Virus record (IMG/VR): IMGVR_UViG_2917870735_000002
Direction: 5' to 3' (one strand)
Length of the DNA: 31,520 nucleotides
From: a virus
Lineage: Duplodnaviria > Heunggongvirae > Uroviricota > Caudoviricetes
Shown one piece after another: positions 1 to 31,520 of the stretch (within the stretch, counting starts at the first letter, position 1; each line of letters starts with the position of its first letter). Below the pieces are notes generated by a model, which saw only the letters and a program-made list of their open reading frames with translations, ran no database searches and was not told the DNA's origin. A program made the position numbers and the translations under genes.

Positions 1-129
1 CTATTTATCGGAAGGTTTATCTTGCTGCGGTTTGTTGTTGACCATATCGCACAACATCGAGAGCAGCATTAACCGTACTTTAAAGGGAGAGTGACTAAAC
101 ACGCGCATACACCTCTTGAACTCATTCAT
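1..129 (-). CDS. small hypothetical protein (42 aa)
   Basis: Not in ORF track (<60 aa). ATG at 129-127 on minus strand with AGGAGG about 5 nt upstream; stop TAG at 3-1. Translation MNEFKRCMRVFSHSPFKVRLMLLSMLCDMVNNKPQQDKPSDK. Function unknown. Confidence 0.35.
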   Translation of the reverse strand: MNEFKRCMRVFSHSPFKVRLMLLSMLCDMVNNKPQQDKPSDK

Positions 130-17914: not shown

Positions 17915-18105
17915 CAAAGCGAGTCCATGAAATTGAAATGAATGGACTCGAACAATATTTAATTCTACGCCGTCATTATTTACCACATGGTCAGGATTCC
18001 GTTGATGATATCGCCGCCGCTATCTGGCTGGACAATCGTCACTGGGAATATACGGGAATAGCTGTGGCCAATGGTGTGGCAAAAGCATTTAAAGGCAGTG
18101 AATGA
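17657..18105 (+). CDS. tail assembly chaperone, predicted -1 programmed frameshift fusion product (E+E'-like)
   Basis: The -1 frame is open from 17902 to stop 18103-18105 and overlaps the short form only across A AAA AAC. Extension reads KKLTKRVHEIEMNGLEQYLILRRHYLPHGQDSVDDIAAAIWLDNRHWEYTGIAVANGVAKAFKGSE; its TGA overlaps the tape measure ATG (ATGA). Confidence 0.4.
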
Positions 18106-19292
18106 AACAATTAGATTTTACATTAAGCCTGATTGATAAATTATCCCGCCCGTTAAAACAGGTGCAAGGTAACGTCACCGGCTTTGCGGAAAAATCAAAA
18201 GCAGCCTTTATGCAGATCGGTGGTGGCGTTCTGGCGCTGGCAGGTATCGGGATGGAGATCAAAAGTGCTTTATCACCGGCAATTGAAATGTATGACGCGC
18301 TGAATGATGCCGCCGCAAAAGGTATTGATGATTCGGCACTTAAGACAGTTCAGCGTGATGCCCTGCGCTTCAGTACAACCTATGGTGCCAGTGCGGTGGA
18401 GTTTGTTAAATCCACGGAAAATATTAACGCTTCCATTGCCGGACTGACGGGTAATGAACTGCCGAAGGTGACGAAAGTCGCCAATACCCTGGCTTTTGCG
18501 CTCAAGTCCACAGCGGCGGACACGGCGGAATTTATGGGGCAGATGTTCGGTAACTTTTCCGCCGATGCCACCAGACTGGGCAAGGTTGAATTTGCCGAGC
18601 AGCTGGCAGGCAAGATGGTTTATATGCGCAAAACCTTTGGCACAGAAATGGCCACTATCAAGGATTTGATGGAAGGTGCGCGCGGCGTCGGGACTAACTA
18701 CGGCGTGGGACTGGATGAACAACTGGCCGTGCTGGGGCAACTTCAGCGGACGCTGGGAACAGAAGCCAGCAGCGCCTATGAAGGGTTTATGACCGGCGCG
18801 GTTGATGGCGCTAAAAAGCTGGGGCTGTCCTTTACTGACTCCACCGGCAAAATGTTGTCCATGCCTGAAATGCTGATCAAGTTGCAAGGCAAATATGGCA
18901 AAAGCCTTGAAGGGAATCTGAAAGCCCAGGCGGAACTGGATGCAGCCTTTGGTAACAGTTCTGCAGTGGTTAAACATCTTTACGGCAATGTCGCGTTACT
19001 TCAGCGGAACATCACCGAACTGGGCAGTACGGACGGCCTGAAGCGTACCCAGGAAATGGCACAAAAAATGGTTAAGCCGTGGGATCGCTTTGTACAAATC
19101 CTGAAAGCCATTCAGACCGTGATCGGACTGACGCTGATCCCGGTGCTGTATCCGGTTCTGAATCGCCTGGCTGATATGGGGCAGACCTTTGCTCGTTGGA
19201 TGCAGTTATTTCCTAACATTGCCCGTGTGATTGGTTATGCGTCGGTGGCACTACTGAGCTTTGCCGCCGTGGGTGCGGTTGCAATATCGTGA
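18102..19292 (+). CDS. tail tape measure protein, N-terminal ORF
   Basis: 396 aa, Ala/Gly-rich helical with hydrophobic C-terminal segment; directly follows chaperone. Confidence 0.7.
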   Translation: MKQLDFTLSLIDKLSRPLKQVQGNVTGFAEKSKAAFMQIGGGVLALAGIGMEIKSALSPAIEMYDALNDAAAKGIDDSALKTVQRDALRFSTTYGASAVEFVKSTENINASIAGLTGNELPKVTKVANTLAFALKSTAADTAEFMGQMFGNFSADATRLGKVEFAEQLAGKMVYMRKTFGTEMATIKDLMEGARGVGTNYGVGLDEQLAVLGQLQRTLGTEASSAYEGFMTGAVDGAKKLGLSFTDSTGKMLSMPEMLIKLQGKYGKSLEGNLKAQAELDAAFGNSSAVVKHLYGNVALLQRNITELGSTDGLKRTQEMAQKMVKPWDRFVQILKAIQTVIGLTLIPVLYPVLNRLADMGQTFARWMQLFPNIARVIGYASVALLSFAAVGAVAIS

Positions 19293-20068
19293 TGGGGGTA
19301 TCCAGATTCATCATGATGGGATTACGTGGGATCTGGGGGGCGTTAACGGCGGTTACGAAAATCTACACGGCGACTGTCTGGCTGGCGCAAATGGCGGTAA
19401 TCGCCTGGAATACCACGCTGAAGTTTTTACGCGGCGCGTTACTGGCGGTACGCATGGCCGCAATGATGACCGGAATTGGTATCAATCTGATGAGCTGGCC
19501 AATCCTGCTTGTGATTGGTGCCATTGCGCTGCTTGTTGCTGGTTGTTATCTGCTGGTTAAGCACTGGAACACGATAAAAGCATCGGTGATGAATACCGAA
19601 GCCTTCCAGGCATGTGCTGCCGTAGTGAAATGGCTAGCGGGGATCTTTGTTTTAGCCTGGCAATATGTCAGTGATGGATGGAACAGTTTTATTTCTATGC
19701 TGACAGGATTTTCACCATCTGAGGCATTAAATGGAATGGCCACCGGTATTATGTCACTGTTTGATATTGTCTGGAACTCAATCAAAGAGGGATTTCTTAA
19801 GTCGTGGAACTGGATTGTTCAGAAACTGAATGAAATTCCCGGCGTGGATATTTCTCTGGCGAGTGAAACCTTACAGCCGTTAACTGGTAATACGCTGTCT
19901 ACGGGGGGCGATTTAAAAGGTGTGGATAATGGCGGTATCAGTAAAACAATCAGCAGCAACACAACATCCGTAATCGATAACAGCCGGAAAATTGGTGAAG
20001 TGCATTTCCATACCAAAGAAGCATTATCTCCACTCCAGCTTATGGAATGGCAGGAGCTTGGTGCATGA
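19292..20068 (+). CDS. tape measure protein C-terminal portion, or separate hydrophobic tail protein
   Basis: 258 aa from ATG 19292 (track gives GTG 19289); -1 frame relative to preceding ORF, joined at TGATG; multiple hydrophobic segments typical of tape-measure central regions. Confidence 0.55.
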   Translation: MGVSRFIMMGLRGIWGALTAVTKIYTATVWLAQMAVIAWNTTLKFLRGALLAVRMAAMMTGIGINLMSWPILLVIGAIALLVAGCYLLVKHWNTIKASVMNTEAFQACAAVVKWLAGIFVLAWQYVSDGWNSFISMLTGFSPSEALNGMATGIMSLFDIVWNSIKEGFLKSWNWIVQKLNEIPGVDISLASETLQPLTGNTLSTGGDLKGVDNGGISKTISSNTTSVIDNSRKIGEVHFHTKEALSPLQLMEWQELGA

Positions 20069-25042: not shown

Positions 25043-25559
25043 TGGCGAGGCCATCCAGCTGAAAAACATGCGGGTGACTGTTTCACAGCAATTTCAGGAT
25101 AAAGATCAGTCCGGCCAGACCAGTGCCACAACAAAATCAGAGCAGGGAGCAAAGGGAAAGGAACTGCGGATCAGCGGTGAAATACCTTTTAAACAGCCTG
25201 AAGTACTAAAGCGTATTTTTGAGCTGGCCAGTACTACCGATGCCAGTGGTAATCGTCAGAAATATCGCGTGGTGCATGAAGTTGCCCGTGCTGTTAACTT
25301 TCGTGAAGCAACGTTCAGCGGAACGGTGGATGCACCCCAGCAGGACGGGAAGATGTCCTGGTTGGTGACATTCACACTGGCGGAACATATCAGCGTGCAG
25401 GAAAAGCAAGAGGCCAGGGCAACAGGTAAGACGACCGCAAAAAAACAGACTGCCGGTAGTGCGGGACAGTCCGGTGGCCAGTCTGCCGGAGAAGATGAAG
25501 AAAAACTGACGTGGTTTGAACGCAAGGTACTGAAGCCCGTCAATGATGCTTTGGGTTAA
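25014..25559 (+). CDS. putative tail protein (gpU position, 181 aa)
   Basis: ATG 25014 with AAGGGA upstream; precedes large distal tail gene; positional assignment only. Confidence 0.4.
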   Translation: MTSIPTLALNGEAIQLKNMRVTVSQQFQDKDQSGQTSATTKSEQGAKGKELRISGEIPFKQPEVLKRIFELASTTDASGNRQKYRVVHEVARAVNFREATFSGTVDAPQQDGKMSWLVTFTLAEHISVQEKQEARATGKTTAKKQTAGSAGQSGGQSAGEDEEKLTWFERKVLKPVNDALG

Positions 25560-27262
25560 TGATGAAACCAGTAAAACGCCTATACCTTTCAACGGATGAA
25601 GTTCACCTGGTGGATGCCAGCCTGGTACTGGAGCTGAACAGCTGCGGCCGGGGCTTCATCACCGCAGAGACAACAACCGATTACACCGGAAAACTGGTGA
25701 GGCTGGATGTGGGGTATACCGAACTGCTTTTGCGCTGGTTTACGGGGTATGTGGAGCGATCGCAGCCCGCTGAAAACGGTTTTCAGCGTCTGTTCATTCG
25801 TGAGTTGGCAGGTGTGTTTGAAAGGATGTGGCCATGTTCGTTTCAACACCCGACTTTGCGTGAAATTGCGGTCTGGTTGGAAGAAAATAGCGGGATCACG
25901 GTCAGTGTGCCTGACGCACAGTACAGCGATACCCCTATCCCACATTTTACCCATAACGGTACTGGTTATCAGTTGCTGAACAATCTGGGAAGGGCGTTCA
26001 GTATCCAGGATTACATCTGGTACCAGTTTCCTGATGGTTCGCTTTACGTCGGTGGCGCAGAAAAGTCATTGTTTGCCGGTCGTCCCGTAGAAATCCCATC
26101 AGAATTCAGCCAGGGGGCTGCTGGCGGTAACTCTGTGACATTACCAGTGATCCAGACTATGCGGCCAGGGGTGGAGATGAACGGTGAACGCGTGACTAAG
26201 GTTCATCTGACGAATGACACGATGGCGATCACATGGATGCCGAGAAACCGCGTAACGGGTAAACCTTTGCAGAAAACACCGGCACAAAGGCAGATTGAAA
26301 GCCATTACCCTGAACTGGCATCTGGGCTTCATTTGCCAAAGATGGCCAGAGTCGTGGCGTATTCAGAGCCGGTAAAAAGCGGTAACTTTGCCGATCCCTT
26401 CCGACCACGTTACGCCGTGGACGTGCAGCTTCTTGACGCAGACGGAAACCCGGACAATCAGACACCTGTTTATTCAGCGGTGCCGTTGCCAGTACCGATG
26501 GCTGGGAATGATTCAGGTATGTTTCAGTTTCCGCCAGAAGGGACGCTGGTTGAGGTTGCATTCACGGGAGGCAGACCTGATAAACCCTTTATCAGGCAGA
26601 CGCTGCCGGATGGTACCAGCCTGCCGGACGTTAAACCCGGTGAGCAATTGCAGCAGCAGCGGGAAGAAGTATCCCAGAGGGTGACTCAGGCTGGAGACTG
26701 GGTAAGGCAGACCGATCAGACCATCAGTGAAACATCGATGGTGCGAACGGTAAAAGCCGATACGGAACAGCGCGAACTGGTCAGCCGTGAAACCGCGGTG
26801 AAAGCTACGGATAAAACTACGGTACTGGGAACCGCCATATTGCTGGCTGGAGCCATCCAGCAGGTCAGCGCCGGTGATTATAGCCAGGCGGTGAAAGGTA
26901 ACAGGCTGTCCAGTATTGAAGGAAACGAAGAAACGGACATAACAGGACTGCAGTCCACTAAAGTGGGGGGGGCTGTAGTCGTGGAGGTTGGCGAAAGCCT
27001 GACAGAGAAGATTGCAGCACTGCGTAAATCAGTAGCCACTGGAGGTCAGCAGGTCATGGGGGCAACTGTCCATATTGGCAGTGAGAGTATCAACGCCCTG
27101 ACCATGATGCTGGACACCATTGATTTACTGGAAGAGCTGGCGCAGCTATGTGCGAGCCATTCTCATCCCTCCGTTGGGATGCCAACCAATGCCGCCGCGT
27201 TCACCCAGACAGGGACGAAAGCCGGGCAGACCCGGGAAAAATACCAGGGGATTATTGCCTAA
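25559..27262 (+). CDS. putative baseplate hub / late control D-like tail protein (567 aa)
   Basis: TAATG-coupled to upstream gene; last gene of late operon as gpD is in P2; no firm motif recognised. Confidence 0.4.
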   Translation: MMKPVKRLYLSTDEVHLVDASLVLELNSCGRGFITAETTTDYTGKLVRLDVGYTELLLRWFTGYVERSQPAENGFQRLFIRELAGVFERMWPCSFQHPTLREIAVWLEENSGITVSVPDAQYSDTPIPHFTHNGTGYQLLNNLGRAFSIQDYIWYQFPDGSLYVGGAEKSLFAGRPVEIPSEFSQGAAGGNSVTLPVIQTMRPGVEMNGERVTKVHLTNDTMAITWMPRNRVTGKPLQKTPAQRQIESHYPELASGLHLPKMARVVAYSEPVKSGNFADPFRPRYAVDVQLLDADGNPDNQTPVYSAVPLPVPMAGNDSGMFQFPPEGTLVEVAFTGGRPDKPFIRQTLPDGTSLPDVKPGEQLQQQREEVSQRVTQAGDWVRQTDQTISETSMVRTVKADTEQRELVSRETAVKATDKTTVLGTAILLAGAIQQVSAGDYSQAVKGNRLSSIEGNEETDITGLQSTKVGGAVVVEVGESLTEKIAALRKSVATGGQQVMGATVHIGSESINALTMMLDTIDLLEELAQLCASHSHPSVGMPTNAAAFTQTGTKAGQTREKYQGIIA

Positions 27263-27316: not shown

Positions 27317-27913
27317 TCAGTTGTTGTGTAGTTCAAGATAGTTAGAGGTGGAGTGCGTATCAAGCGGTAGTAGTTGTGCGGCTCTGCGGGTTATAAAGAC
27401 ACTATTGGCAGGAATGTTTCGGTTAACGAATGACATAGCACCAATTGTCACATTATCACCAATGGTCAGATCATCACCGATGATGCATGAATTTGCGCCA
27501 ATCTCGACATTGTCTCCGATCCTGATGGCTTTGATTCCTTCAACTGTTTTTAATCCAATCGTTGTGTTTTGTCGGATACGAACATTTTTTCCAATCACAG
27601 CCTGGGGACAAATGACTATTCCAACGAAGTGATAAATTTTGAATTTTTCCCCGATCTGTGCCCCCAATCCAATATCAGTATTGTATTTTGAAACAAGTCT
27701 CCGGTGGATTCTTCGTGCCCACTTAATACTTGATTTCCCTCCCTGACAGTAAAGGCAATTCGCTATCCTCCACCAACACATGAATCTGTGTCCGGGTTGT
27801 CTCCAGCAACGTAGTATGATTCTCCTCCAGGAGAAATTTTTACTGCTGTGCAGTATGTCCGCGCACAACAACTTCTTCATATCCTCATAATGCGACTTTT
27901 TGTTGTTGCTCAT
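27317..27913 (-). CDS. hexapeptide-repeat acetyltransferase, serine acetyltransferase (CysE)/WcaB-like
   Basis: 198 aa; ATG 27913 with AGGGAGA upstream. Helical N-terminus (HRFMCWWRIANCLY) then left-handed beta-helix repeats (DIGLGAQIGEKFKIYHFVGIVICPQAVIGKNVRIRQNTTIG ... IGDNVEIGANSCIIGDDLTIGDNVTIGAMSFV) paralleling the CysE core pattern. AT-rich; convergent with the last tail gene. Confidence 0.75.
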   Translation of the reverse strand: MSNNKKSHYEDMKKLLCADILHSSKNFSWRRIILRCWRQPGHRFMCWWRIANCLYCQGGKSSIKWARRIHRRLVSKYNTDIGLGAQIGEKFKIYHFVGIVICPQAVIGKNVRIRQNTTIGLKTVEGIKAIRIGDNVEIGANSCIIGDDLTIGDNVTIGAMSFVNRNIPANSVFITRRAAQLLPLDTHSTSNYLELHNN

Positions 27914-27928
27914 AAATTATTCTCCCTA

Positions 27929-27945
27929 ATAATCCTGAGGATTAT
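27929..27945. promoter_or_regulatory. 17-bp perfect palindrome ATAATCCTGAGGATTAT adjoining the acetyltransferase RBS
   Basis: 8-bp arms around a central G, verified base by base; 16-32 bp upstream of the start codon at 27913. Confidence 0.45.
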
Positions 27946-28466
27946 CGTACATGAGAATGATCTGATTTTCTGCTAACAACATTAAGTTATGTGGTCGGAA
28001 CTGATAATTGGCTACTTAATCCCAAATAATTAGTTGAATTACTAACAAAACATCTTTCTTATCTTGTCATAGATGTCGGCAGAGGGATTATTAACCCTTT
28101 AATAACAAACCTAACTTGGTCACTAAGTATAAAAGAACAGAATTGTAGCGTTGCGCTGGTATGGTGATATGGCGACAAAATAAATCCTTTGCAGACAAAA
28201 ACGGCGCTACACCGCACCCGCCTGCGGTTTCTGGATCTGGAAAATTTTTCAGTTTTATTTTTTTACAAACAGCACCGCCAGACCGCGCCACGGTTGGCTG
28301 CTTGCCAAAGAACAGGAACTGAAAAGATTGAAAAGAATTTCAGCATTTTTCAGTTTAGAGGATCTGTAAAGGATCTAAGTGGAAAGGCAAGCAATTGAAA
28401 TATAATAATAAATTTTATATTTGTGGAGTGGAGAAGATCAAATGTCGAAGGCAATGTGTAGGAGGA

Positions 28467-28499
28467 AAAACCCGCAATGCCAGTTGTGGTGCGGGTTTT
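28467..28499 (-). terminator. rho-independent terminator-like hairpin (10-bp stem AAAACCCGCA/TGCGGGTTTT, 13-nt loop)
   Basis: Perfect stem verified; on the minus strand the stem ends in UUUU followed by UCCUCC; about 70 bp downstream of the minus-strand 122-aa gene. Confidence 0.55.
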
Positions 28500-28566
28500 A
28501 GGGGGATTAGATTAAATTCAGAAAGTGAAATTAGCATACCTATACTTTAAGTGCGCCAATAGGTAA

Positions 28567-28935
28567 TCAATTTTCATCAATATGACTTTCGTTTTCATCT
28601 TTGTACCATGTGGGCAAATTATCTGTAATTTGTTCATTAATTACATTTTGAGTGTCAGCAGGTAGCAGTTTAAAAATCTCAAAAATAAAGTTTGATATTT
28701 CAACTTTTACATCAGCAGTAGGGCCATAAAAATCATCTTTAACATAATCCCATTTATGCTTTATTAAAGTTGATTCTGGATATTGTATTTTGACTAAGCC
28801 AATTTGTTTGTAAATCCAATTTATGGCGCTATCTGCTCCAGAGAAGGCCTCATTACCGCTATTAATAAATGGCCCAACATCATAGACACGTTTAGTGTTA
28901 TTATCTAAAACTCTTACATAACAATTGGTTGCCAT
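28567..28935 (-). CDS. hypothetical small acidic protein (122 aa)
   Basis: ATG 28935 with AAGGTGG upstream; 15 bp after the 104-aa gene on the same strand; AT-rich; acidic C-terminus. Confidence 0.6.
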   Translation of the reverse strand: MATNCYVRVLDNNTKRVYDVGPFINSGNEAFSGADSAINWIYKQIGLVKIQYPESTLIKHKWDYVKDDFYGPTADVKVEISNFIFEIFKLLPADTQNVINEQITDNLPTWYKDENESHIDEN

Positions 28936-28950
28936 ACCCCACCTTTTTTA

Positions 28951-29265
28951 TTAGCCAATGTACCGTACACGATTGCCGTTATATAATGGCCATTCGTTTA
29001 GCAAATCTCTAAGTAGTCTTTCCATGTGAGTTGCATCTTCTGCTGCATTTTTTCCAACATAGTCATTTCCACGTTGGAAAGTTTCATAACGCATTGCCAT
29101 TGATGGGGTGTTTTCTTCAAAGCCAATTGGAGACAAATCATTTATTTGTGTAACTGCTACATCGCCAGATTTAGATACCCAGAGAATATGATGACCTGCG
29201 TTATCGTCGCAAGCAGAGATTAGTTGTGAGAGTTGGCTTACTGTAGGGTTATTGTTTAAGTTCAT
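28951..29265 (-). CDS. hypothetical small protein (104 aa)
   Basis: ATG 29265 with AAGAGG 8 nt upstream; first gene of a two-gene cassette. Confidence 0.6.
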   Translation of the reverse strand: MNLNNNPTVSQLSQLISACDDNAGHHILWVSKSGDVAVTQINDLSPIGFEENTPSMAMRYETFQRGNDYVGKNAAEDATHMERLLRDLLNEWPLYNGNRVRYIG

Positions 29266-29474
29266 TTAAATACCTCTTTTAATAAGATTTAGTTATAACG
29301 TAAAACAAGCCACAAATTGATTATCTATCCTCATAGGCTGCATATCAACTTTAGATTTTAGGCGGTGTGGATCGTGGTAAGCCAGAGATTATAGAGATAA
29401 GCCCGCTTGTAAGAACTGGCGCGGGCTGCACGTAAATTTATGAAATCTTCACAACTGAAATTTGTTCAGCGAAA

Positions 29475-30101
29475 TTACAGCACTGTTTCTGCGGAACGGG
29501 ACGCTTCTTTTGTCGCATTGCCAGTGATAAAAGGCTGCTTTTCCTGATATTCCGACTGCGGTAGTTTGGATGTATACACTGGCGTGATCTTGTTTTTATA
29601 AACGGTGTCACTGGGGATGTTCTGAAGCACCAGTGAATGCGCACCAATGGTGACATTGTTTCCGATTGTAATCTTGCCGCCCAGAATGGACGAGTTACAG
29701 CCAATATCAACATGATCACCAATGATTATCATTGCGTCGACACTGTCGGTGCGTAACCCTATGGTGATGCCTTGCTTCAGGTCGGCGAAATCACCAATCA
29801 CGCAATTGTCAGTAATGACAATACCGTTCAAATGAGCAATGTTTAACCCCTTGCCGATTTTGCACGACAGAGAAATATCAACGCTGTGCCGGTACTTGAG
29901 GCGGTTTTCAATTCTGCGGGCAATGCGCTTTTTGAACTTACTATTCTGGCCATAGAGCCATGAAGCAATACGCCACCAGAACAGGAAGTGCTTCTTCTGG
30001 TTGCGTCGGGTACGAAGTAACGCTTTACGCCATGAAAAGGCTTTGTCATGGCCAATGACTTCAAGGCGGATACATTCTTTACGATGGTCGTAGGAAGTCA
30101 T
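29475..30101 (-). CDS. hexapeptide-repeat acetyltransferase, CysE/WcaB-like (divergent paralog of 27317..27913)
   Basis: 208 aa; shares N-terminal motif (FSWR..., WWRIASWLY) and beta-helix repeats (IGDFADLKQGITIGL ... IGDHVDIGCNSSILGGKITIGNNVTIGAHSLV) with the other acetyltransferase. Confidence 0.75.
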   Translation of the reverse strand: MTSYDHRKECIRLEVIGHDKAFSWRKALLRTRRNQKKHFLFWWRIASWLYGQNSKFKKRIARRIENRLKYRHSVDISLSCKIGKGLNIAHLNGIVITDNCVIGDFADLKQGITIGLRTDSVDAMIIIGDHVDIGCNSSILGGKITIGNNVTIGAHSLVLQNIPSDTVYKNKITPVYTSKLPQSEYQEKQPFITGNATKEASRSAETVL

Positions 30102-30284: not shown

Positions 30285-31520
30285 TTAGAGGTGAAACCAA
30301 GAATAAGTAGCTTCATCTTTTTCAAAAATATACTGTATATGTAATTCAACTAACCAGAGACTAACTATTTTAAGCGTAAGTTTATTACATAAATGAATAT
30401 ACCTTGTATAACTTATTTCTCTTTCAGCTCCTGTACCCCCACTTTTGTATCGAACAGATTCTCCATCATGCCATATTGATGCGTGATGCGAGCCATTCCT
30501 AATTGTAGATTCTAAATCATCTTCACAAAAGGCGGTAAATAATTCATTGTCTTTAAATGGATTTATCTTTCCTTCTTTATTAACATCTTTTATATATTTG
30601 TTTAGTGTCATTGTTTTGAATTGATCAAAACTCCTTCCATTAATAATGTTATTAATGCAGGCTAATATTGTCATGTTAGATGTTAAAGTTTCATAAGCAT
30701 CACCATAGTAATTACGGATTTTATCAAAGTTTTTTGAACTGATGATTTTGGTGTCAATTTCATCGTTGTTTATTCTTGCGTAATATATTAGTTGGCCAAA
30801 ATGATCTCGACGAGACATGAAGTCTGATATGATGTTTATATATCTTTGTTGATTTTCAACCTGTAGGTTTTGTTTATAAAATTTATAGAAATCGTCCAGT
30901 AATCCATTTTTTTTAAGCTCGTCAATTTCTAGCTTTATAGGTTCGGCAATGTCATGAACACGAGGGTAGAAAAGCCAATCTAAAAACTCATAACTAATTG
31001 AAGTGAAAGAGTACATTGAATCCTTTTTGTAAAGAGGTAATTCTTCATTTCGTGACTGCATGTATAATTTTGCTGTACGCTGTGCTTTTTCTATTTCCCC
31101 ATTGTTAATAAGTTTTGCAATGGATTTTAAATAAGCCCATTTTGACGGAGCGTTAGGAATATCAAATTGGTGTGAAATGCTGATAATTCTTTGTCCAGGT
31201 GGCATCCTCATATGCTTATGGAGCATGCTCGTTAACTCAAGGGATGGGAAAGTTGTTGGTGAATGAATTTCATCTTTGTCGAAAGCACAAGCTGGGTGAA
31301 AATTAACTACTTTATGTTCTAAGCTATATTCAACAATAATACAATTTTCTTCAACTTGAATGTAAGCGCTGGGGGGAATAGCTTTTACAGCAAAAACAAT
31401 TGGCATATTACATTCAAAACAATCCATGAAATGCTTTTGATATTTATCAATTCCGACCCCAACCCTTACACGATAAATAGCGTTACATGACTGACATTGG
31501 ATGCTATTACCGATTACCAT
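30285..31520 (-). CDS. hypothetical Cys-rich protein (at least 411 aa); zinc-ribbon-like N-terminus; 5' end at window edge
   Basis: ORF runs to the last base; first ATG is at 31520-31518 so the true start may lie outside. N-terminus has CQSC-x22-CFEC spacing; very AT-rich; no recognisable catalytic motif. Confidence 0.6.
   Translation of the reverse strand: MVIGNSIQCQSCNAIYRVRVGVGIDKYQKHFMDCFECNMPIVFAVKAIPPSAYIQVEENCIIVEYSLEHKVVNFHPACAFDKDEIHSPTTFPSLELTSMLHKHMRMPPGQRIISISHQFDIPNAPSKWAYLKSIAKLINNGEIEKAQRTAKLYMQSRNEELPLYKKDSMYSFTSISYEFLDWLFYPRVHDIAEPIKLEIDELKKNGLLDDFYKFYKQNLQVENQQRYINIISDFMSRRDHFGQLIYYARINNDEIDTKIISSKNFDKIRNYYGDAYETLTSNMTILACINNIINGRSFDQFKTMTLNKYIKDVNKEGKINPFKDNELFTAFCEDDLESTIRNGSHHASIWHDGESVRYKSGGTGAEREISYTRYIHLCNKLTLKIVSLWLVELHIQYIFEKDEATYSWFHL

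Follow-up and report, generated by a model that had tools for sequence, protein, structure and literature searches.

The present analysis concerns a stretch of 31,520 nt from a tailed virus (IMG/VR record IMGVR_UViG_2917870735_000002; Caudoviricetes), hereafter the window, which comprises the host gene mntS and a P2-family (Peduoviridae, Quadragintavirus) prophage of Escherichia coli. In the cargo region of this prophage lie two divergent genes, here called SAT1 and SAT2, for hexapeptide (left-handed beta-helix, LbH) acetyltransferases of the phrog_2154 family. On balance, we favour the view that they are separately acquired morons, the products of which would O-acetylate an envelope-glycan precursor and thereby mask a receptor or convert the serotype of the lysogen, similar to NeuO. 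The two genes are:

27317..27913, minus strand: SAT1, hexapeptide (LbH) acetyltransferase of the phrog_2154 family, 198 aa, between the tail spike/baseplate gene and a cos-like element
29475..30101, minus strand: SAT2, hexapeptide (LbH) acetyltransferase of the phrog_2154 family, 208 aa, on the att side of the cos-like element

SAT1 and SAT2 are diverged members of one family

Both open reading frames (ORFs) were found exactly where an original prediction, made from the DNA letters, had placed them, and the predicted distance of about 1.6 kb corresponds to a gap of 1,561 bp. Over a gap-free alignment of 167 aa, the two proteins share 43% identity (39-43% across measures), a similarity far beyond chance given the BLASTP expect value of 3e-44. 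Matches to the phrog_2154 profile are full-length and extend over residues 5-182 of SAT1 (E 5.9e-58) and residues 5-175 of SAT2 (E 8.6e-54). The Pfam Hexapep model scored 46.8 bits in SAT1, above its cut-off of 27, and 24.7 bits in SAT2, slightly under the cut-off. Two sequence motifs singled out in the original prediction as common to both proteins are indeed present in each, FSW at positions 22 and 27 and WWRIA at positions 42 and 47, and they coincide with invariant columns of the family alignment (W24, W42, W43, R44 and A46). With this degree of identity, the Hexapep matches and the shared family membership, the description of the pair as diverged relatives of the CysE/WcaB type holds.

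An AlphaFold2 model of the SAT2 monomer (mean pLDDT 90.4) displays four N-terminal helices followed by a beta-helix, with a low-confidence C-terminal tail from around residue 170. When this model was compared with the PDB using Foldseek, the top 50 matches were all serine acetyltransferases (probability 1.0, TM ~0.6), and the best PDB matches by sequence were likewise CysE. The fold of SAT1 is taken from its alignment to the modelled SAT2. The serine acetyltransferase-type helical N-terminus and the beta-helix that had been anticipated for both proteins are thus reproduced, by the model for SAT2 and via the alignment for SAT1, and both belong to the LbH acyltransferase superfamily, with a predicted soluble helix-plus-LbH fold. 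They would probably assemble into trimers; conserved Gly/Ala residues in the last coils (G147, G153 and A154) are consistent with an active site and a CoA groove at a trimer interface.

The catalytic pair is kept and the serine-binding site is gone

In an alignment with E. coli CysE and WcaB, the catalytic residues D143 and H158 of CysE are kept as D75 and H90 in SAT2 and as D80 and H95 in SAT1, so that the catalytic histidine which the original prediction had proposed to check is present in both proteins. CysE holds its substrate L-serine through D92, D157, R192 and H193, as known from established structures of the enzyme. None of these four residues, nor the adjacent P93, is kept in SAT1 or SAT2 in the CysE alignment: at CysE positions 92, 93, 143, 157, 158, 192 and 193, where CysE itself has DPDDHRH, SAT2 reads --DAHAM and SAT1 reads --DYHKA. 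An acidic residue plus a histidine, with the rest of the serine site gone, is also the pattern of WcaB. The loss is meaningful because short archaeal homologues, encoded between the genes of a PALP cysteine synthase (cysK) and CysRS (cysS), keep every serine-site residue of CysE.

Besides, curated protein family models gave low scores. For the two proteins, TIGR01172 (CysE) yielded 70.3 and 81.1 bits against a cut-off of 210.65, PRK11132 (CysE) 46 and 62 bits against 397, and TIGR04016 (WcaB) 67.8 and 64 bits against 194.65; in the NCBIfam ranking, the exopolysaccharide (EPS)-associated EpsC came out best, followed by CysE and WcaB, all far under their cut-offs. Vat/CatB-type families were not matched by SAT1 or SAT2 among the NCBIfam results, and Pfam returned neither SATase_N (PF06426) nor an AT3 domain in either protein. 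The N-terminal domain, which comprises four helices in the SAT2 model, is shorter than that of CysE, and neither C-terminus (...AETVL and ...ELHNN) presents the Ile-terminated tail by which CysE binds CysK. Homologues are named serine (O-)acetyltransferase in RefSeq by PGAP. As the serine-binding residues are absent and the scores fall far below the CysE and WcaB cut-offs, this annotation is probably wrong for SAT1 and SAT2.

Not all relatives retain the catalytic pair. Among 161 homologues, the two catalytic positions are occupied by D/E plus H in 119 and by T plus Y in 38 cases; they co-vary and would therefore act as a functional pair where present. The T/Y clade (IMG/VR loci such as L084-L122, for instance L095:7965-8528), in which both catalytic residues are replaced, is the largest phage clade, with 38 fetched loci. 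The protein cluster of this clade (P0030) comprises 783 sequences. The clade occurs on both P2-like and P1-like backbones, and in 37 of the 38 loci the distance to a tail-fibre-assembly, tail-fibre or spike gene is at most three genes. The substitutions suggest that the function of this clade may be non-catalytic or altered.

The family is abundant in phages and linked to tail-fibre genes

According to the original prediction, cytoplasmic hexapeptide enzymes would be less usual as phage cargo. This did not stand up to the wider search: the family has its own PHROG (phrog_2154, listed by PHROGs as of unknown function), was detected by tblastn in 53 deposited records of phages, some of them P1-like, some P2-like and some infecting Streptococcus thermophilus, and occurs in 195 IMG/VR stretches, with NeuO of prophage CUS-3 as a characterised precedent at an equivalent place in the genome. 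The tblastn homologues comprise, among others, phiNP sat, a gene of Hafnia phage yong2, JL22 sacF, and genes of the S. thermophilus 987-group phages. The family has already been noticed in the literature, and SAT1 and SAT2 are two further members. In the P1-like phage-plasmid JL22, the gene together with tfa replaces part of the tail-fibre operon, 'reason unknown' (PMC9603915). For S. thermophilus 987-group phages, a figure legend shows it as a gene of its own, next to the modules for tail/receptor binding and for lysis (PMC6213268), and for Citrobacter rodentium phage phiNP the gene is given merely as fitness cargo (PMC6456863). Our literature search for phage hexapeptide or serine acetyltransferases in the contexts of defence, O-antigen and P2 hotspots returned descriptive mentions only.

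For the genomic context, 160 loci encoding relatives were fetched, their ORFs called and the neighbouring genes clustered; the IMG/VR subset amounts to 78 family genes, the loci being redundant. A tail-fibre-assembly (Caudo_TAP), tail-fibre or spike gene immediately adjoins the family gene in 62 of the 78 IMG/VR loci, and in all 62 the family gene is on the opposite strand to, and convergent with, the adjoining fibre gene. On P2-like backbones, this arrangement is flanked by tube, tape measure and gpU genes on one side and by gpG, H, I and J on the other. The same linkage was observed on 80-95 kb P1-like and on HP1/Quadragintavirus-like contigs, and it involves several sequence clades.

Chromosomal relatives lie in glycan clusters or stand alone

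Some relatives encoded on bacterial chromosomes are embedded in glycan loci. A Leminorella homologue with an FWWR motif lies inside a waa cluster for the core of lipopolysaccharide (LPS), in the order GT4, GT8, WaaY, an unassigned gene, SAT and WaaL, and homologues from Vibrio, Winogradskyella and Paludibacteraceae are situated among glycosyltransferase, Wzy or UDP-GlcNAc epimerase genes. Homologues from Pseudomonas sit beside integrase or LysR/LysE genes. Intestinirhabdus, Pseudocitrobacter, Pluralibacter and Kluyvera (L003, L004, L005 and L019) carry close relatives of SAT2 and SAT1 as lone single-gene insertions, with copA-SAT-cueR and nagZ-SAT-ycfP as examples and a position directly upstream of a major facilitator superfamily transporter gene in Intestinirhabdus and Pluralibacter; the fetched flanks of these four loci contain no recognisable phage genes. 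Such lone insertions between housekeeping genes indicate that the gene works without a partner and that its substrate, which many hosts must possess, is conserved among the hosts concerned.

SAT1 and SAT2 were likely acquired independently

The pair is cargo of a prophage between mntS and mntR and not a piece of a capsule or O-antigen locus of the host, an origin that the original prediction had contemplated. Within the cargo region, SAT1 and SAT2 reside in distinct slots, one on each side of an element that splits the cargo in two and is kept in every related prophage regardless of the genes around it:

28173..28385, no strand: conserved non-coding element of ~200 bp with the junction ...GGCGCTACACC^GCACCCGCCTGCGG..., common to all Quadragintavirus prophages

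Clustering of the 161 homologues at 50% identity placed SAT1 and SAT2 in different groups. The nearest relatives of SAT1 are ev040 gp41 (89% aa identity) and the products of IMG/VR loci L136 and L140 (~87-90% by two measures); overall, it is 87-90% identical to proteins of ev040-like phages and 51-54% to those of Kluyvera and Rahnella. SAT2, whose DNA is 97.6% identical to that of ev015, shares 93-94% with proteins of ev015-like phages, 73-84% with those of Intestinirhabdus, Pseudocitrobacter and Pluralibacter, and 59% with those on P2-like contigs. These separate clades, the occurrence of sister phages with one type only, and the separate slots around the cos-like element support two independent acquisitions from one mobile family. 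The original prediction had left the choice between an old duplication and two independent acquisitions; the second alternative gains from these data, and the first does not. A local tandem duplication in this prophage, followed by long divergence, would account for two genes of the same family on the same strand within 1.6 kb, yet we deem it highly improbable: the mutual identity of 39-43% compares with 87-94% to proteins of other phages and 51-84% to those of other genera, ev040 carries the SAT1 type only, ev015 and ev129 carry the SAT2 type only, and a conserved element separates the two genes. Among 5,426 complete E. coli genomes, moreover, not one contained a match covering at least 80% of the cargo region.

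A proposed role in envelope-glycan acetylation

We propose that SAT1 and SAT2 would be soluble, acetyl-CoA-dependent O-acetyltransferases of the CysE/WcaB branch of the LbH superfamily. Using the Asp/Glu-His pair as general base, they would transfer the acetyl group to a sugar hydroxyl of a glycan intermediate that is built at the cytoplasmic face of the inner membrane. Candidate acceptors would be the lipid A-linked LPS core, an undecaprenyl-pyrophosphate (Und-PP)-linked unit of O-antigen, enterobacterial common antigen or colanic acid, or a nucleotide sugar; going by the product names of neighbouring K-12 genes, WcaB and WcaF act on Und-PP-linked intermediates. As a consequence, the surface receptor or serotype of the lysogen might change, leading to superinfection exclusion of phages whose fibres read that glycan, and the presence of two divergent copies could mean two different acetyl marks or two substrate specificities. 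Among the roles suggested in the original prediction, the acetylation of a surface-polysaccharide precursor is the one to which the genomic context lends most support. Both genes have the traits of morons: they are located on the strand opposite the late operon, are low in G+C, are separated by hairpins, and lie between the spike gene and att.

A number of observations weigh against this proposal. Neither an experiment nor a publication that assigns a substrate to the family was found. The tail-fibre linkage could reflect a shared recombination hotspot and not a functional link, and many chromosomal relatives are located outside glycan clusters. The slots of SAT1 and SAT2 hold Abi_C and an SMC/ABC-like ATPase in sister prophages, which makes a non-glycan defence role plausible. 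The largest phage clade is devoid of both catalytic residues, and at least some members must therefore do without this chemistry. Finally, the S. thermophilus 987-group phages are described as virulent; should this be the case, their family members would be at odds with a role confined to lysogens.

On a wider scale, phrog_2154 could represent widespread accessory genes for phage host range that acetylate glycans of the LPS-core type, with two specificities in this prophage and a second, non-enzymatic role in the T/Y clade. In its full breadth we regard this as tentative and rather doubtful. The genes would then travel with tail-fibre and assembly cassettes across P1-like, P2-like, HP1-like and possibly Gram-positive phages, and the acceptor might be, for example, the LPS core read by the fibres of P1, P2 and Mu, modified along a soluble route distinct from that of the membrane-bound Gtr and Oac proteins.

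Other functions were considered as well. If SAT1 and SAT2 were genuine serine O-acetyltransferases, they would be auxiliary metabolic genes through which the lysogen would produce O-acetylserine and thereby step up its cysteine synthesis or release it from control. The top PDB matches by sequence and by structure, all of them CysE, the RefSeq naming of homologues, and the intact Asp-His pair would fit this. Nevertheless, we give it very little credence, given that D92, D157, R192 and H193 are all gone, yet kept in the cysK/cysS-linked archaeal homologues, that TIGR01172 scores are 70 and 81 bits against the required 210.65, that the N-terminal domain is short and without a SATase_N match, that the CysK-binding Ile tail is missing, and that no cys genes were found near SAT1 or SAT2. 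Less remote, albeit still unlikely in our view, is a function in defence or counter-defence, whereby the acetylated target would not be a glycan but, for instance, a host or phage protein, a small-molecule signal, a compound resembling an antibiotic, or a substrate linked to nucleic acid. SAT1 and SAT2 would then stand in for the other defence cargo of this hotspot. Sister prophages carry Abi_C, an SMC/AAA_15/AAA_21-type ATPase or a 411-aa HEPN-like protein in the same slot, SAT-type genes are optional and missing from several of these prophages, and they act alone. However, PADLOC-DB 2.0 gave a chance-level match to Cas56g for SAT1 (E 0.012) and nothing for SAT2, a defence system based on a hexapeptide acetyltransferase did not surface in our literature search, Vat/CatB-type families were missing from the NCBIfam matches, and the convergent tail-fibre linkage together with the relatives in glycan clusters points to surface chemistry.

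It is also conceivable that one or both proteins are non-catalytic and serve as a trimeric beta-helix scaffold or binding protein, in tail-fibre assembly or ligand sequestration. The T/Y clade lends itself to such a role, with 38 conserved and widespread loci by tail-fibre-assembly genes and a cluster of 783 sequences. SAT1 and SAT2, however, keep the Asp-His pair as well as conserved Gly/Ala residues of the beta-helix, in register with the coils of CysE, and they are transcribed opposite the late structural operon, unlike what would be expected of a part in virion assembly. The data therefore suggest a non-catalytic role for the T/Y clade only, and for SAT1 and SAT2 themselves we consider it very improbable.

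Comparison with known acetyltransferases

Envelope-glycan acetylation, the role that we favour, can be compared with that of several known enzymes. WcaB (TIGR04016) resembles SAT1 and SAT2 in being a short, soluble, CysE-like LbH protein of similar size, with an acidic residue and a histidine but neither the Arg-His pair that binds serine nor an Asp before the His. On the other hand, the helical N-terminal region of SAT1 and SAT2 is longer and bears the FSW...FWWRIA signature; the two proteins reach 64-68 bits against the WcaB cut-off of 194.65, and they are prophage cargo outside a wca cluster. With CysE they have the LbH domain, the last N-terminal helices and the Asp143-His158 pair in common, whereas D92, D157, R192, H193, most of the N-terminal domain, the CysK-binding C-terminus and a cys gene context are all lacking.

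NeuO, the polysialic-acid O-acetyltransferase of prophage CUS-3, is likewise a phage-borne soluble hexapeptide enzyme and modifies a surface polysaccharide; neuO lies between a tailspike gene and int/att, as SAT1 and SAT2 lie between the spike gene and att. Yet NeuO belongs to a different LbH branch: an ORF fragment of it contains a DGHP motif, which differs from that of SAT1 and SAT2 and is typical of the Maa/LacA/NodL type. NeuO is also phase-variable via poly-psi heptanucleotide repeats, which are not found at SAT1 or SAT2, where a scan for tandem repeats indicative of such phase variation returned none except those encoding the hexapeptide repeats. The acyltransferase-3 seroconversion enzymes (Oac of Sf6, OafA and GtrC) match in the proposed role, that is LPS O-acetylation leading to a change of serotype or receptor, and in a similar place near att and a tailspike gene, but they are integral membrane proteins acting at the membrane or in the periplasm, whereas SAT1 and SAT2 are predicted to be soluble LbH proteins without an AT3 domain. 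From other phrog_2154 members the pair does not differ in kind; what sets this prophage apart is that it carries two divergent ones.

If glycan acetylation holds true, the family would be misannotated in large numbers as serine acetyltransferases, and temperate phages would possess a single-gene means to rewrite a receptor or serotype of Enterobacterales, with a bearing on host range in phage therapy, on serotyping and on superinfection immunity. The tail-fibre linkage further leads to the hypothesis that fibre and acetyltransferase are swapped as a matched pair. Should the glycan reading turn out wrong, the family would still be an abundant phage gene. Either way, we see the value of these data in the probable misannotation of the family, its convergent linkage to tail-fibre genes, and the existence of a large clade without the catalytic pair.

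Further cargo modules and the cos-like element

Starting next to the spike gene and read in plus-strand direction, the cargo region consists of SAT1, the non-coding element, a 122-aa gene, a 104-aa gene, SAT2 and a 411-aa gene, all genes being on the minus strand and convergent with the late operon. The features in question, together with the two genes that are referred to in the prophage setting, are:

1-129, minus strand: mntS, host gene, translation MNEFKRCMRVF...DK
25559..27262, plus strand: tail spike/baseplate gene, 567 aa, phrog_2258 baseplate protein (E 4e-272), with weak Phage_base_V and Gp5_C matches
28567..29265, minus strand: two-gene cassette for proteins of 104 aa (28951-29265) and 122 aa (28567-28935)
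30285..31520, minus strand: 411-aa gene, last prophage gene before mntR, 32% G+C

The non-coding element at 28173-28385 is probably the virion DNA terminus (cos). The ev015 record begins and ends within it, and the ev015, ev040 and ev129 records contain an Illumina Nextera adapter with i5 index exactly at the junction, GGCGCTACACC^GCACCCGCC (NC_049395 (L001), positions 1-48 and record end; NC_049393 (L165), ~3648; NC_049394 (L166), ~4880); it is the coincidence of record ends and adapters on which the reading as cos is based. The Nextera adapters constitute a contamination of these GenBank/RefSeq records.

The 104-aa and 122-aa proteins have no match in Pfam, NCBIfam, PHROG or PADLOC. Their genes are always adjacent in the loci examined, occur without a SAT gene in Salmonella prophages, beside mug, and may form a two-gene cargo module. 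Distant homologues of the 104-aa protein were noticed in a mobile region of Chlorobium. The 411-aa protein has a CxxC...CxxC zinc ribbon at its N-terminus as well as a helical domain in which R341-x-G-x-H345-H346 is invariant, and its gene is a candidate stand-alone defence gene outside the SAT pair. Both the 104-aa/122-aa pair and the 411-aa gene were considered as partners of SAT2 and rejected, as each occurs elsewhere without SAT. Hairpins were read from the sequence and then folded: terminator-like structures of -28.1 kcal/mol (z -8.4) and -15.7 kcal/mol (z -4.2) lie downstream of the 411-aa gene and the 122-aa gene, respectively, and a weaker one is found 3' of SAT2. These hairpins divide the units, which therefore look independently transcribed.

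The combination of modules varies between related prophages. Phage ev040 has the SAT1 type and an Abi_C protein, ev015 and ev129 contain just the SAT2 type, E. coli MFDS1019527 combines the SAT2 type with an SMC/AAA-type (AAA_15/AAA_21) ATPase, and the Salmonella relatives have just the 104-aa/122-aa pair. E. coli EC42405 is without SAT and has a hypothetical 411-aa gene beside mntR, likened to that of the window by length alone. Depending on the strain, the mntR-side slot hence contains Abi_C, an SMC/AAA ATPase, DUF6338 plus hypothetical genes, a SAT gene or a 411-aa gene, and resembles a defence hotspot in its behaviour. None of the five cargo proteins of the window obtained a usable match from PADLOC.

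Prophage setting

In the window, mntS is followed by the integrase gene and then by a complete set of P2-family structural genes. Between ~2.8 kb and 27.26 kb, the window matches Escherichia phage ESSI2_ev015 (Peduoviridae, Quadragintavirus) in aligned blocks of ~88-94% nucleotide identity, with 93% across the structural genes. Related E. coli prophages sit between mntS and mntR, and on another contig the immediate neighbour of mntR is a gene near-identical to the last one of the window. Because related prophages end at mntR, the region beyond the spike/baseplate gene is taken as the cargo end of the prophage; the spike/baseplate gene closes the late structural operon and is convergent with SAT1, and the G+C content drops from ~52% to 32-45% in the cargo region. 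Candidate attL/attR sites, sought as direct repeats shared by the left end and the cargo region, amounted to just 10-12-mers that are likely due to chance; attR falls outside the window.

Rfam, run on the whole window at the gathering threshold and on the 650-bp spacer at an E-value threshold, gave just a chance Leu_leader match of 21 bits, and a tRNA scan of the window found none. A consensus scan for promoters and terminators detected 20 promoter-like sites compared with 14.7 expected. Besides, the tape-measure gene is split by a frameshift into ORFs at 18102-19292 and 19289-20068 (plus strand), as opposed to a single 655-aa gene in ev015, which may point to a defective prophage or to a sequencing error.

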